Shown: positions 2,769-27,547 of the stretch, piece after piece
How the letters are laid out: each line of letters opens with the position of its first letter
Position numbering within the stretch: the first letter of the stretch is position 1
Origin: Candidatus Jordarchaeales archaeon
Lineage (GTDB): Archaea; Asgardarchaeota; Jordiarchaeia; Jordiarchaeales; Freyrarchaeaceae
DNA: 32,000 nt
Reading direction: 5' to 3'
Assembly: GCA_038858525.1 (NCBI GenBank)
Contig: JAWCFL010000001.1
Span: 90,001-122,000, forward strand
Notes under the pieces: model-generated
The model's input: the letters and a program-made list of their open reading frames with translations, nothing else
Database searches by the model: none
Told to the model about the DNA's origin: nothing
Position numbers and translations under genes: made by a program

Positions 2769-3878
2769 TCAGTATATGTCTTCTTTTGATTCTTCTTCTT
2801 TTTCCTTTGTTAATTCTTTTACCGATATTCTCTTTAGTAAAAGATTTCCCATCGAATTTTCTACTTTTATTATATATTCTCCATCGTTATCCACTCGTGG
2901 AAAGACGAAAACCAAGCTTTCTAGAGGGAACCATAGTTCCACGTTTGTTGACCATGAATATGTCTCAAAGATGTCCTGTATATGACTTATAGTTATTTTT
3001 ATGTCTTCAAGTCCTTTTTCAGAAGAGTTTTTAACCATTATCTTAAGCTTCTTTCCTTGCTCCATTAGTTCTATGCCTTCTAGCTCAACGGGGCTCTCAC
3101 GCATTAGCTCAACTTGCCTAGTTTTTAGTGGGCTTTTCTCGGAAAGGGTGACGCTTCTAATCGGGGTCTGTTCACCATAGAGATGACTGAGGAGAAAATA
3201 AACAAGACTTTTCTGTTTCTCTGCATCAAATTGAAGAGAGTCTATAACTTTTCGGGAAACTTCAGGTATCACTGAGACGCATATGTCCTCCAGCATAGAG
3301 ACTATATGCTTGCTTTCTTCGATGAGTGACTTATCTCCCTCGCTTTTGACGGGTTTAATTTTAGCTTCTTCAGCTAAAATTAGGAGGTAGAGGTTATCAT
3401 AGAACTGCTTCTGTATCTTTTCTCTTAACGCTCTTAGGAGCTCCTCACCAAGCGGCTTTGCTATAGATGTAGGAGCGCTCACTATGAGCACAAAGACCTC
3501 TTCTGCCTCCTCATCTATTCCCGCTCTCTCTTTTTTCCTAGAGGACCTGGCGGTGAACTTTGTTCCAGAGTATACTTTTCCGCCAAACTCCATGTCAACA
3601 TGATCCACGTTTCCTTTGAACTCGTTAACGCCAAGCCACCAAACAGGGTGACGTTGGAGAAGTCTGATGACGGATTTATTGCCTTTCAATTCGTGAGGTA
3701 TTGTGAAAAGAATTAGATGCCCTTTTGCTTCATGAAAGCAACACAGGTATATTTCAATAAACTCAGAGAAAGCGGTTATCTTTGAATTAGCGTATGTACT
3801 ACTGTTCTCAACTTCGCTCTTTTGCATAAAAGACTCTGCTATTTCATTACTGGGATTCCTAGACGGATGCTCAACCAT
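2769..3878 (-). CDS. Hypothetical protein with a longin/uDENN-like N-terminal domain and a C-terminal beta-sandwich
   Basis: 369-aa ORF with SD; IYLCCFHEAKGHLILFTIP resembles the uDENN FD-x3-GP-x5-P start; predicted beta-beta-alpha-beta-beta-beta-alpha-alpha order; C-terminal LKIMVKNSSEKGLEDIKITI is Ig/appendage-like. CDS is secure, fold call is inference. Confidence 0.75.
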   Translation of the reverse strand: MVEHPSRNPSNEIAESFMQKSEVENSSTYANSKITAFSEFIEIYLCCFHEAKGHLILFTIPHELKGNKSVIRLLQRHPVWWLGVNEFKGNVDHVDMEFGGKVYSGTKFTARSSRKKERAGIDEEAEEVFVLIVSAPTSIAKPLGEELLRALREKIQKQFYDNLYLLILAEEAKIKPVKSEGDKSLIEESKHIVSMLEDICVSVIPEVSRKVIDSLQFDAEKQKSLVYFLLSHLYGEQTPIRSVTLSEKSPLKTRQVELMRESPVELEGIELMEQGKKLKIMVKNSSEKGLEDIKITISHIQDIFETYSWSTNVELWFPLESLVFVFPRVDNDGEYIIKVENSMGNLLLKRISVKELTKEKEEESKEDIY

Positions 3879-22418: not shown

Positions 22419-24586
22419 TTAGAACTCTGCCAATTTGACTCACTTTAATCTTCAAGTCTTTAATTCTTTCTTTTCCCCGCTAGAGACTTGATCCTTTATT
22501 TTTCTTGCCGTTTCAGGACCCTATTTTTGTAGGCTAGCTAGTTTTTCGAGGAAGATAGGTTTAAGTCATCAATGGAACGTACACTTGCATTAAACAGCAT
22601 CCTAGCTCTAACTTTGCCTACGCATTCAACTTCACGATGTCCAGTAACTCTTCTTTGATGCCATACCTTATCCCGTTCATGCATTTTTCCGAGAAAACGA
22701 ATTTTATCGGTCATGTCTAGTATATTTGCTATTTCACTTGCTGCATACGTCAACTATTCTGGCTATTTCGACTAAAGGATAAGTATCTCCCACACCGACA
22801 ACGAGAAAGTCCACTACTTCGTCCTTATCGACCTCACCTATCCACTCTTAGTAGAAAGGCGGTCTTGACCTCTAAAAAGGAGCCGTTCGTACTTCGCCGG
22901 ATCAGATTCATAGTTCGGTACTTCTGTCATGAAAAAGTCTTTGTTATTTTCTACAATCGTGGAAAACTGGTAATCCTTTTGTAAGGTAAAGCCGCAGCAT
23001 ATCCGGCGTGGTGCATAACAAGTATAGATAGTTTATTTCTAAGGGAGGCGGGAATCTTAAGCCGTTGATTATCTTAATCACGGATAATGGGTCTACGTAA
23101 ACTTCTGCAACACGCTTTCCTAGTGGGGATGCCGCTAAATTTCTGTCTGAGATTTTTTAGAAACCCGTTGTTCGAAAGAAACGTTAATACGTTCTTTATC
23201 GTTTTGGGAGTATCTTTATGTATCCGCCTTGCGGATAAGCGTAGAAACTTCCACTAAAGAGCTAAGAAGTTCTTCCTCGGCCATTTACATAGCCGGATAC
23301 CACTAGAGATAAAACGTGACATCTGAGAGCGTTCTCGGATGAAAGCTTGGACTCTACTCTTTCGTGGCTCCCCTTTCACGTAACGTTTCAAAAGAAGTGA
23401 TTTTCCTTAGTGTTTTTAGCTACTAAGATTGCTTCACCAACCACATCATATTTTAGTCTTCCAGCCCTACCAGCCATTTGCTTATAAACAGGTATAGGCG
23501 TTCATTCCACCTTCGGCTTCTTTTGTAATTTCTGATTATTACGTGTCTTGCTGGAAGGTTAACACCCGCAGCTAAAGTTGGCGTTGCACAAACTACTTTA
23601 ATCAGGTTTTCCTTTGAAGCCATGTTCTACTATTCTTCTTTGGGGAGTACTTAATCCAGCATGATGAAAAAGCTACGCCTTTTTCGATTGCCGATGTGAA
23701 CTTCTGAAATTTTGTTTTTCTCACCGCTAGCAACCAACTCCGCAATGATCTCTCTGAGGGAACGCTTCTCTTGCCTTGTAAGAAGGTGAGCGATGAAATA
23801 TTAGAGGAGGCGCTATCTACAGTCATTGATCCTCCCTAGTCGCCTCAAAAATGAGCGCTTGACAAGCGTTCTTAACGGTATTAGCAGCTAAATATACTGC
23901 GGCATCACTTGTACTCTCCTCAACAATAGAGGAGGTCCCATCGCTAAACTCGGTTGCTCATCAAAGAAAAAGCATTCCTTTAGTTGAACAGGACGCCAAT
24001 CACTAAATATATGAGCGCCGCCAATCCACCCGCTGATCTCGTCAGCGTTCTTTATTTTTGCGCTTAAAGCTAGGATTTGAGGAGAAGGAGCAAATTTTTC
24101 AGCCTAGTGAGAACTATTTCGAGCGTTGCACCACGGGAAGGGTCACTTAGAAGGTGCATTTCATCTGCAACCACAACATTGACCTTAGAAAAATGGATGA
24201 GTTTGCCTCATTAAAGCGTCAGCCATTTCGTTAATGCAAACTAATACGTCAAATTCCTCCAGCTCATACTTCACAGAGTCGTAGTCTCCCGTTGAAACTC
24301 CGACATTACCTAAGCTATTCCACTTCGAAAACTCCTGAAACTTCTCGTTCGCGATGGCACGTAGTAGAACCAAATAAAGAGCGCACCCACCTTCCAAGAC
24401 TTTCTTAATCATACAAAGCTCTGCTATGAGAGTCTTACCCAGCAGCAGTCAGCGCAAGCCAAAACAGCGTTCCGCCCATTAGGCACACAGCTTCTCACAG
24501 CAGCTTCTTGAGGCGAGTATAACTTCTTAATGCCATGTGTCTCTAAAGTCTTCAGGACGTTCGGGCAACAGCTCGTCAATAAGCAT
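22419..24586 (-). pseudogene. hel308: Degraded Hel308 (Ski2-like SF2) DNA helicase
   Basis: Motifs appear in order but split over several frames and stops: [103 protein letters not shown]. The 3' end is approximate. Confidence 0.9.
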
Positions 24587-24654
24587 CGAACCTCTCTCCG
24601 TTTAAACAAGTTATGTTCTCAGACAAGCGCGTTATCTCTCCTTGTGAATTTATC

Positions 24655-24661
24655 AAAGTCA
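24655..24661. repeat. Left target-site duplication AAAGTCA
   Basis: Identical 7-mer at 26024-26030; both abut the inverted-repeat ends directly. Confidence 0.8.
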
Positions 24662-24703
24662 CAGGCTGTCGAAAGATTCGACATCCTTAAATATGAGTCT
24701 TTC
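24662..24703 (+). repeat. Terminal inverted repeat, left copy
   Basis: Contains palindrome TGTCGAA-AGA-TTCGACA (24667-24683); inverted match to 25981-26023. Confidence 0.9.
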
Positions 24704-24724
24704 AGCTGTCGAATCTTCAGCCTC

Positions 24725-24850
24725 TCCGTTCCTGTCCATCCGCTTGTCCTCATCGCAAGGCTTGTTAGGGCGGACTTCATCCACATCATGGAGCTTTCAA
24801 GGGAGCCTGAAACTCCTCACATCCTGGAGGAATTTTCTAAGCAGATTTCT
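24725..24850 (-). ncRNA. Putative TnpB omegaRNA scaffold overlapping the tnpB 3' end (boundaries approximate)
   Basis: GATGTGAGGAGTTTCAGGCTCCCTTGAAAGCTCC resembles, from memory, the GA-rich structured tails of archaeal tnpB genes; omegaRNAs overlap tnpB 3' ends as a family rule. Not folded computationally. Confidence 0.45.
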
Positions 24851-25926
24851 ACACGCATCCATATGCCTATCTATTCCGCATTTCGGGAGCTCTGCTCTTT
24901 CGGCTTTATGATTGAGCCACATACCGAGCAGATTTTAGACGTTTCCTCCTATCAACATAAGAGGTTGTGGAGCCGTTGAGCAGATCTTTATACTCAACAT
25001 AGAACTGTAGCCTTCTTGTCGGCATGGCATTCCACAACCTTTTGAAACGCTTAGAGTTGATGGAGCATCTCTGAACCTTTCCCTTAAACTTGTTGTATCG
25101 CTTCCCTTTCTTATTCGTTGATTTTCTCATCCCCTTAAGGTCTTCAAAGACTATCGTGTAGCCTCTACATTTGTTAATTATAGCTTTAGATAGCTTGTGG
25201 AGGGCGTCTTTAATCTTGCCGCTCTCTCTTTTTTCCCATACTTTTTCATAAGCCATTTGTAGGTTTTTGTCCCTTTAGCAACTTTCATTTGGATTCGCTT
25301 TCTCTTTTCAAAGTATGCTGAACGTATCCTTTTCTTTTAATCTCGGAAGTATCAATGACGGAGGAGCCTCCATCGGTTGCCAGCGCCGTTATGTTTTCCT
25401 CGTTTATGTCCAATGCAATAGCTCCTTTAGGCTCTAAGAGGTTGACAACCCATTTAAAGGGTATGAGGACGTACTGCTCGTTTATTATGATTTCCCCAAT
25501 TTTTAGCTCTCCACGCTTCCATGCATCAACGAACTTCCTCTGGTAGCTTCCAAAAAGGAGCTTTAAATGGACAAGTTTTCTCGGCTTAACCGAAATCCTT
25601 ATGGTTTCACCATCAAACTTGTAGGCTAAGGGGGAAACCTTCACGAACAGACTCTTAACCTCTGGAACCTCTCCGCCTCTCTTCTTCCAAGCCTTAACGG
25701 CTCCAATTGCTACTCTGTAAGCCGTAACGTAAAAGCTGATTTGGTATGAATATTTACGTTTAAGCTCCACATATATGGCATCGTGAAGCGACTTTAGCGA
25801 CGTAGTCCTTAGTTTTACAAGTTTCTTTATGCAGGCATTAACAATTTCTTGATAATCAGAAAGCAACTTGTCTATCTCGGCGTTCTTCTATTTGAAGGGA
25901 ACTGACTGCACAACCTCTAAAGACAT
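24797..25926 (-). pseudogene. tnpB: TnpB RNA-guided nuclease, inactivated
   Basis: ATG 25926; TAG at codon 13; RuvC-I AIALDINEEN, RuvC-II IVFEDL, Zn finger TSKICSVCG...PKCG, RuvC-III DRHMDACRN; frameshifts near 25320, 25230, 24945 and 24890. Confidence 0.9.
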
Positions 25927-25980
25927 CAAAAATTTATCTTAGATAAAGTTTTATGAATCTTTCAGAAACATCGGCAAAAA

Positions 25981-26023
25981 GAACGACTTATATTTAAATG
26001 ATGTCGAATCTTTCGACAGCTTG
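25981..26023 (-). repeat. Terminal inverted repeat, right copy
   Basis: 26000-26020 is the exact reverse complement of 24665-24685. Confidence 0.9.
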
Positions 26024-26030
26024 AAAGTCA
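26024..26030. repeat. Right target-site duplication AAAGTCA
   Basis: Identical to 24655-24661. Confidence 0.8.
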
Positions 26031-26137
26031 AAAAGACTGTGTCTTCCCTGTTCTTAGGGAAAGATTAGTGAAATAGAAAAGGATATAAGGTTTCGTTTTT
26101 TAATGGCTCGGCAAATTAATGGTTTTGCGTGTGAAAA

Positions 26138-27547
26138 ATGAACAAAAAGGTTATTCTGCTGGATTCAACGCTTCGTGAAGGAGAGCAGACGCCGGGCGTA
26201 TCATTCACCATAGAGGAGAAACTTGAGATTGCGAAAATGCTGGACGAAGTTGGCGTCGGCATGATCGAAGCAGGGTCCCCCATGGTTTCGGAAGGAGTCA
26301 AAGAGGCTGTTAAAAGAATAGCAAATGAGTCGCTGAAAGCAGAGGTTATTGCTCACGTCAGAGCGGTTAAAGAAGACGTAGACTTAGCTCTTAATTGCGG
26401 AGTTGACCGAGTAGCCATCTTTATGGGGACGTCACCTATACATAGAAAAACGAAATTTAAGTTAAATGAAGAGGAAATTATTAAGAGAGTAATTGAAGCA
26501 GTTGAGTATGCTAAAGAGCATGGAGTTAAAGTGAGGTTTACCCCTGAGGATGCAACTAGGACTGAAAGGGAATACCTAGTTAGGATTTGCTCAGCAGCTA
26601 TAGAGGCGGGAGCAGACAGAATAAGCGTGGCGGATACAGTAGGAATAATGACCCCAGATAGTATGTATGAGCTTGTATCTTTTCTTTCCGAAAAGCTAAA
26701 GGGTGCAGGACTTGACGTGCACTGCCATAACGATCTAGGATTAGCTGTTGCCAACTCTCTCGCAGGAGTGAAGGCCGGAGCAAATGTGGTTCATGTTACG
26801 GTAAATGGGCTTGGAGAGAGAGCAGGCATAGCACCTCTTTCGGATGTAGCTGTTGCGTTAAAAGTATTAATGGGAATAGATCCCGGAATAAAGTTTCACA
26901 TGTTAACTGAGCTCTCAAGCATGGTTGAAAGATATAGTGGCGTATACCTTTCTCCTCACACCCCAATAGTTGGAAGTAACGCGTTTTCCCATAAAGCAGG
27001 AGTTCACGTAGCTGCCGTTCTAGCTGACCCGAGCACGTATGAAGCGTTTGACCCGTCAATCTTGGGAAGAAGCAGAAAAATAGTCGTAGATAGATATGCT
27101 GGAAAGCATGCTGTTAAAGCAAAGCTGGACGAGCTAGGAGTAGAAGTAAATGAGGAGCAACTGGAGAAAATAACTAGGAAGATAAAGGAGCTTTCAGATA
27201 AGAAAAAGCGCATAGAGAACGCTGACATTTTAGCTATAGCAGAAGAGGTGTTAGGACGAAACGTCAGAGGCGTAACGCCTGAAGGAGTTATGGGGATCGT
27301 CTTAGTGAAGGTCGAGTCGCATGTTTACACGACGAACATAATAAGAAGGATCATAAATATCCCCGGAGTGGAAAACGCATTTGAAGTGAGTGGGGAGTAC
27401 GACATAGTGGTTTACGTTCAAACAAGGAATATGAGCGAGTTGAACGAACGCATAGAGGCAATCAGAAGCGTAAGGGGAGTTGAAAGAACCACAACAAAGA
27501 TAGTGCTAAAGAGGTTCGACAGTCAAAATAAAATAATTTCGAAGTAA
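26138..27547 (+). CDS. Homocitrate synthase-like LeuA-family enzyme with a C-terminal Lrp/AsnC (RAM) regulatory domain
   Basis: DSTLREGEQTPG, HCHNDLGLAVAN, NGLGERAG, FSHKAGVH; C-terminal IPGVENAFEVSGEYDIVV...IRSVRGVERTTTKIVL is a RAM domain. Confidence 0.9.
   Translation: MNKKVILLDSTLREGEQTPGVSFTIEEKLEIAKMLDEVGVGMIEAGSPMVSEGVKEAVKRIANESLKAEVIAHVRAVKEDVDLALNCGVDRVAIFMGTSPIHRKTKFKLNEEEIIKRVIEAVEYAKEHGVKVRFTPEDATRTEREYLVRICSAAIEAGADRISVADTVGIMTPDSMYELVSFLSEKLKGAGLDVHCHNDLGLAVANSLAGVKAGANVVHVTVNGLGERAGIAPLSDVAVALKVLMGIDPGIKFHMLTELSSMVERYSGVYLSPHTPIVGSNAFSHKAGVHVAAVLADPSTYEAFDPSILGRSRKIVVDRYAGKHAVKAKLDELGVEVNEEQLEKITRKIKELSDKKKRIENADILAIAEEVLGRNVRGVTPEGVMGIVLVKVESHVYTTNIIRRIINIPGVENAFEVSGEYDIVVYVQTRNMSELNERIEAIRSVRGVERTTTKIVLKRFDSQNKIISK

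Follow-up and report, generated by a model that had tools for sequence, protein, structure and literature searches.

TnpBs flanked by inverted terminal repeats (TIRs) and solo TnpBs have already been published on DDE transposons (PMC10691335, PMC13565253). The branches DDE-1 to DDE-6 (Altae-Tran et al. 2023, PMC10691335) resemble the locus presented here in that TnpB lies inside inverted terminal repeats, its 3' end falls within 250 bp of the element end and solo copies are mobilized in trans. CboIStron of the IS607 family (PMC10690162) is alike in its three-stem scaffold and in the pseudoknot that joins a loop to the 3' end of the RNA; the same nexus pseudoknot is essential for the activity of its nuclease, CboTnpB. 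The IS200/IS605 elements and the IS1341 solo-tnpB elements also have an omegaRNA at the right end and solo tnpB copies mobilized in trans but, unlike the element described below, they lack TIRs and TSDs and depend on a Y1 HUH transposase.

The window, that is, the whole 32,000-nucleotide stretch of DNA analyzed, from an archaeon that is probably an Asgard, contains a non-autonomous TIR element of 1362 bp (24662-26023, minus strand) with tnpB and an omegaRNA as its only cargo, delimited by its TIRs, its TSD, the empty site and comparison with relatives. Sequence comparison placed the right-end TIR, which would double as the 3' part of the omegaRNA scaffold, at 24662-24703 and the left-end TIR, of a long subfamily, at 25981-26023 (both minus strand). 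The TIRs are about 42 nt long and share 88% identity over 43 nt (E 8e-7); the left-end TIR is about 43 nt longer than its counterpart in locus L016. The TSD is a 7-nt direct repeat, with its left copy, TGACTTT, at 26024-26030 and its right copy, which corresponds to nucleotides 1-7 of the predicted guide, at 24655-24661 (both minus strand). In the congener G003 the alignment spans the insertion point and holds one copy of the repeat, and the congener G001 is likewise without an insert at this site. The first-pass annotation had placed the direct repeat and the adjoining CTTTT (26035-26031) correctly, and the 3' tail that it quoted was recovered at 24735-24662 of the minus strand, followed by the flank; the inner repeat ends at 24703, however, and not at 24728, near which it had let its alternative scaffold stop.

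The gene downstream of the element, hel308 (22422-24586, minus strand), lies 75 nt away and carries several frameshifts compared with the intact open reading frame in G003. No second full copy of hel308 was found in the genome, and the insertion may have cut the gene off from its promoter. Beyond the left end, positions 26138-27547 (plus strand) encode an enzyme that resembles homocitrate synthase and has an Lrp/AsnC ligand-binding domain at its C terminus.

Comparison with homologues identified the tnpB of the window element (24830-25926, minus strand, ATG at 25926) as a pseudogene, a status that the first-pass annotation had not stressed. It is damaged by an in-frame stop at 25890 and four frameshifts near 25338, 25235, 24942 and 24891, and the copy is a recently decayed relic. 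Intact homologues, whose open reading frames extend into the omegaRNA, occur in Bathyarchaeia and other archaea with 65-84% identity over the N-terminal fragment. One of them, P0001 (84% identical over the query fragment), matched PF01385 and PF07282 and has the domain architecture of TnpB (RuvC, zinc finger); its score against NF040570 was 89.8 bits, below the cut-off of 100, and a PDB sequence search with it gave no match. Values of dN/dS among close homologues, the N-terminal half of the window copy included, were 0.07-0.08, which shows strong purifying selection on the protein. The genome of the window (G000) holds a second element of the same TIR type, type A, on contig C24 (12886-14150, minus strand), also with a frameshifted tnpB. 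As no intact type-A tnpB turned up in this genome, the omegaRNA of the window element is probably orphaned.

The predicted omegaRNA scaffold (24662-24823, minus strand) has an approximate 5' end and a 3' end at the last base of the TIR, as judged from a pseudoknot, covariation and a covariance model. A hairpin directly after the RuvC-III codons is common to all relatives; in the window it forms the nexus-like stem-loop 1 (24799-24818, minus strand), whose stem covaries among relatives, with a shuffle test that is inflated by related sequences. The loop of this hairpin contains CAGGCT (24804-24809, minus strand), and the final six bases of the element are AGCCTG (24662-24667, minus strand); the two strands (24809-24804 with 24667-24662) are complementary over 5-6 bases. 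Across relatives with different ends, loop and terminus vary together through compensatory changes. The window and most type-A elements have CAGGC/GCCTG, L117 has CAGGG/CCCTG and L018 CAGCC/GGCTG; IS6-like and some IS607-like elements have GGTTC/GAACC, the IS607-like sisters CCGTT/AACGG and L237 GCGTT/AACGC. Full Watson-Crick pairing (5/5) between loop and terminus was present in 11 of 13 type-A, 7 of 7 GAACC-type and 35 of 39 IS607-like loci, with the ends of the TIR elements set independently, by the TSD. Pairing was maximal at the terminus and fell to chance level, about 3/5, when the end was slid by at least 3 nt; crossing loops with ends of other types gave 2.3-3.9, again chance level.

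A covariance model built from the sisters only pointed to this position in type-A loci as well, with E values between 1e-4 and 6e-3 in five of them, and matched the window weakly (E 0.27). Rfam contained no family matching the RNA of the window or of the sisters. Minimum free energy folding alone was not significant (z -0.96, -1.46), the pseudoknot being outside its reach, and a sigma-70 promoter scan was uninformative for an archaeal host. At 24719-24724 (minus strand) the window reads AGGCTG where relatives read GAAGTC; the minimum free energy fold pairs this segment with the terminus, an interaction that would compete with the pseudoknot. Identity with L028 stops exactly at 24662. The pseudoknot covariation and this drop in conservation strongly support a predicted scaffold that reads through the TIR hairpin and ends at 24662, the outer TIR end, as the first-pass annotation had proposed, and the conserved structured RNA for which it had suggested looking at homologous 3' ends was found, through the covariance model and the shared hairpin. 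The window element has a predicted omegaRNA at its 3' end, presumably expressed and processed in intact relatives, with a pseudoknot from loop to terminus.

With the scaffold ending at the last TIR base, the guide would start with the TSD. The predicted guide (24642-24661, minus strand), for which a length of 20 nt is assumed from other TnpBs, comprises the TSD and the region upstream of hel308, and the same scaffold end strongly supports the earlier proposal of such a guide. The empty allele offers the site motif and a full guide match. At the occupied site, the left junction has the motif and a match of 7 contiguous nucleotides, as the first-pass annotation had put forward (12/20 overall), and the right junction has a full match, but with GCCTG in place of the motif. 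No second target with fewer than 5 mismatches in 20 was found among the seed-matching sites of the genome.

We compared several insertion sites, since one site alone cannot separate a TSD from an IS605-style target plus element end. The TSDs at 11 sites of the tnpB family were 6-9 nt long and unrelated in sequence, eight exact and three with 1-2 mismatches; none was seen in two further elements, L018 and L235. The C24 element has the TIR of the window element and a 6-nt TSD, GAACAA, that differs from that of the window. Directly 5' of the TSD, T occupied position -4 at 10 of the 11 sites, A or T positions -3 and -2 at all 11, and C or T position -1 at nine. The resulting motif TWWY, defined post hoc on 11 sites of which four come from one genome (G402), was present at 8/11 against a background of about 4.5% in the same flanks, and leaving out the four G402 sites gave p about 0.01. 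The T-rich site motif is real, as anticipated for the insertion sites of other copies, and the CTTTT of the window (26031-26035, minus strand), the candidate TAM position, fits it. A partial mirror image of the motif lies on the 3' side of the TSD (p 5e-5), so that the motif may reflect the preference of the transposase alone; L172, a DDE element without tnpB, sits in a similar T-rich/A-rich site. In IS605 and IS607, transposase target and TAM converge, and for this reason we infer that TWWY may also be read by TnpB. The T-rich TAM of the first-pass annotation is borne out as a motif 5' of the TSD and stays a candidate as a TAM, a partly mirrored motif being explicable by the transposase alone.

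We favor, with a probability of roughly 0.55, the reading that the window element is a DDE-captured, IS607-derived tnpB-omegaRNA cassette, mobilized in trans, whose guide is reset at each insertion and whose intact relatives cut empty alleles. On this reading, an archaeal IS1182/IS5-like DDE transposon would have taken up a solo cassette of IS607 ancestry between its TIRs, and the cassette would be moved in trans, leaving TSDs of 6-9 nt. A pseudoknot retuned to the last TIR base would allow each insertion to reprogram the guide to TSD plus right flank. DDE insertion would join the right end at the nick in the top strand with which the TSD begins, and guide base 1 would then follow the same target bases whatever the length of the TSD. 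The matching target would be the empty allele, with the guide start directly after TWWY. An active TnpB would cut empty alleles only; the occupied site would escape, with the motif and a TSD match alone at its left junction and a full match without the motif at its right junction. The TnpB of intact relatives would most likely cut empty alleles in this manner, which would favor retention or homing, and for cleavage of empty sites taken by itself we lean towards acceptance.

Cleavage by the TnpBs of the window's clade is uncertain because the canonical D-E-D triad is absent and the gene in the window is broken: RuvC-I D (25410) and RuvC-II E (25145) are kept and RuvC-III (24871) reads DRH, not DRD. 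The RNA anatomy and guide could stand unchanged with a D-to-H TnpB that binds but does not cut, or nicks weakly, and acts as a passenger or as a regulator that, for example, represses a neighboring gene or protects the element, with the T-rich motif belonging to the transposase only. The DRH motif, the mirrored site motif, the setting of the tnpB-free L172 and the many decayed copies (window, C24, L028, L117) agree with such a protein. We nevertheless judge it unlikely, if far from negligible, as the other two catalytic residues are retained under a dN/dS below 0.1, the type-A copy on C24 keeps DRD, and conserved D-to-H branches of TnpB are argued in PMC10691335 to be probably active.

A layout reported for Fanzors on DDE transposons (PMC13565253) would assign the 3' TSD to the scaffold and the 5' TSD to the TAM, with the guide beginning past the TSD. 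We consider this very unlikely here: TSDs that vary in both sequence and length leave no motif for a protein to read, the pseudoknot ends at the last TIR base, and the right junction would present a TAM beside a perfect target.

Similarly improbable is an IS605- or IS607-type element in which palindromes at the ends look like TIRs and the direct repeat consists of a target motif joined to the element end (TGAC, for example). Each end does contain a palindrome, the nearest sisters are IS607-like and an intact cognate DDE transposase was not found; against this, the direct repeats differ at every site, GGG stands directly before the left end in 24 of 29 sister loci and at none of the type-A sites, no Y1 TnpA was found in G000, and the same TIR encloses a DDE remnant. 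The window element shows the inverted terminal repeats and TSD of DDE-associated TnpB elements. The sister clade, rather than the window element, has the features of the IS607 family (no TIR or TSD, a GG core, a G-rich target), and those of the IS200/IS605 family (no TIR or TSD, a fixed target motif, Y1 TnpA) were not found.

The DDE remnant lies in L172 (533-1806), where a type-A TIR pair with a 6-7-nt TSD surrounds the C-terminal part of a DDE transposase and two small cargo ORFs. Full-length relatives of the remnant are DUF772 plus DDE_Tnp_1 proteins of 310-360 aa; their best NCBIfam match was IS1182 and the next IS5, all below family cut-offs, with scores of 82-167 bits against NF033551 (cut-off 270). 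An IS1182/IS5-like DDE transposase likely mobilizes the window element in trans. The searches recovered no intact transposase flanked by exactly this TIR, and no cognate transposase was found in G000 (92.7% complete), in the congeners G001-G003 or in G402. Two sets of candidate partners were rejected: intact transposases related to the L172 remnant, whose TIRs are of other types (often with GCGCGC TSDs) or undetectable, and the IS6 transposases of G021 and G400, which are without type-A ends. L201, L202, L206 and L212 are intact Bathyarchaeia IS1182/IS5-like elements at GCGCGC sites with 6-nt TSDs.

G402 contains at least 15 type-A ends, which flank tnpB genes of more than one family as well as a 124-bp MITE; the MITE at L183 (27-150) consists of two type-A ends plus a TSD, without omegaRNA. 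A search for the TIR pattern across 401 genomes of the G402 phylum recovered real ends in G402 only, viral contigs gave one match with no sign of an element, and plasmid blastn gave no match. Other tnpB elements (L113, L114, L133, L137 and L029) are bounded by IS6-like TIRs (GGTTCTG...) and by TSDs of 8 nt, most of them exact, and the GGTTC/GAACC pair was present in the three of them tested (L113, L133 and L029). L017 has a 12-nt direct repeat (1455-1470 and 2728-2739) and lacks the left TIR; its guide would have a 12-nt match immediately before its own gene. L016 carries an orphan GAACC-type omegaRNA without tnpB (3226-3355, minus strand) that faces a type-A element. The genome of the window also contains an intact IS607-like solo tnpB, L109 (G000 C3 90605-91714), with AGGG before its left end.

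The other option of the first-pass annotation, a scaffold that stops at the inner repeat (24703-24718, minus strand) and a fixed element-internal guide, has next to no chance of being correct: MAFFT aligns this TIR-like repeat with the ends of short relatives, but it pairs with the loop at only 2-3/5 in all three long elements against 5/5 for the outer end, it folds as the predicted 5' arm of the last stem (pairing with 24683-24672), and it is missing from most relatives, being common to L028 and echoed in L234. In alignment A3 the long elements are aligned via this repeat, and the pair counts from it understate the pseudoknot. As the inner repeat fails the pseudoknot pairing, the predicted guide is the TSD plus the hel308 leader (24661-24642).

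Type-A TnpBs form one clade (SH-aLRT 98) that adjoins an IS607-like group in a quick, midpoint-rooted tree, used for grouping only and not for the order of events. The clade also takes in L029, with an IS6-like TIR, and L237, with an IS607-like RNA end, while other IS6-like elements fall elsewhere; the mixture of end types implies that ends changed more than once. The IS607-like sisters, at about 40% identity, have WGGG targets. CGACA is common to the sister terminus and the type-A TIR and, speculatively, may have eased capture. We offer only tentatively, and at less than even odds, a history in which this TnpB clade moved repeatedly from IS607 to IS1182- and IS6-like DDE ends, with the pseudoknot rewritten each time, the TAM exchanged, WGGG giving way to a T-rich motif that follows the target preference of the DDE enzyme, and an active His-RuvC homing nuclease retained. 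If true, it would be a prokaryotic parallel of the Fanzor transition, natural intermediates included.

A new transposon end means a changed 3' terminus of the scaffold, and a new target preference a changed TAM. The clade provides matched natural pairs, with IS607-like WGGG sisters on one side and TIR/TSD members with a T-rich motif on the other, as well as compact archaeal TnpBs of about 400 aa. The window copy itself is dead and is of value for the intact relatives to which it leads. Base-level predictions of where the scaffold ends, where the guide starts and where a candidate TAM lies make it possible to test directly what TnpB does on DDE transposons. The literature searched yielded no IS1182/IS5-like partner, no variable TSD lying within the guide and no retuning of the pseudoknot at base level; overlap with the DDE-1 to DDE-6 branches is possible.

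The DDE partners named in the texts consulted are IS630, ISL2 and IS1031 (PMC13565253), whereas those proposed here are archaeal, IS1182/IS5-like and leave variable TSDs of 6-9 nt. Among IS607-type relatives, the sister clade has AACGG as its terminus and sits behind WGGG, and MerR-type HTH genes lie upstream in some of its loci; its GGG/WGGG target agrees with the TGGG TAM of CboTnpB; the window element differs from the IS607 family in having TIRs and TSDs, ending in GCCTG and lacking both a GG core and a WGGG target. Fanzor1 (PMC13565253) is likewise an RNA-guided nuclease that rides a TIR/TSD transposon, in its case a eukaryotic DDE transposon, and has an RNA from the right end, but there the pseudoknot is lost and a fixed TSD equals the TAM, whereas here the pseudoknot is kept and a variable TSD would lie inside the guide.
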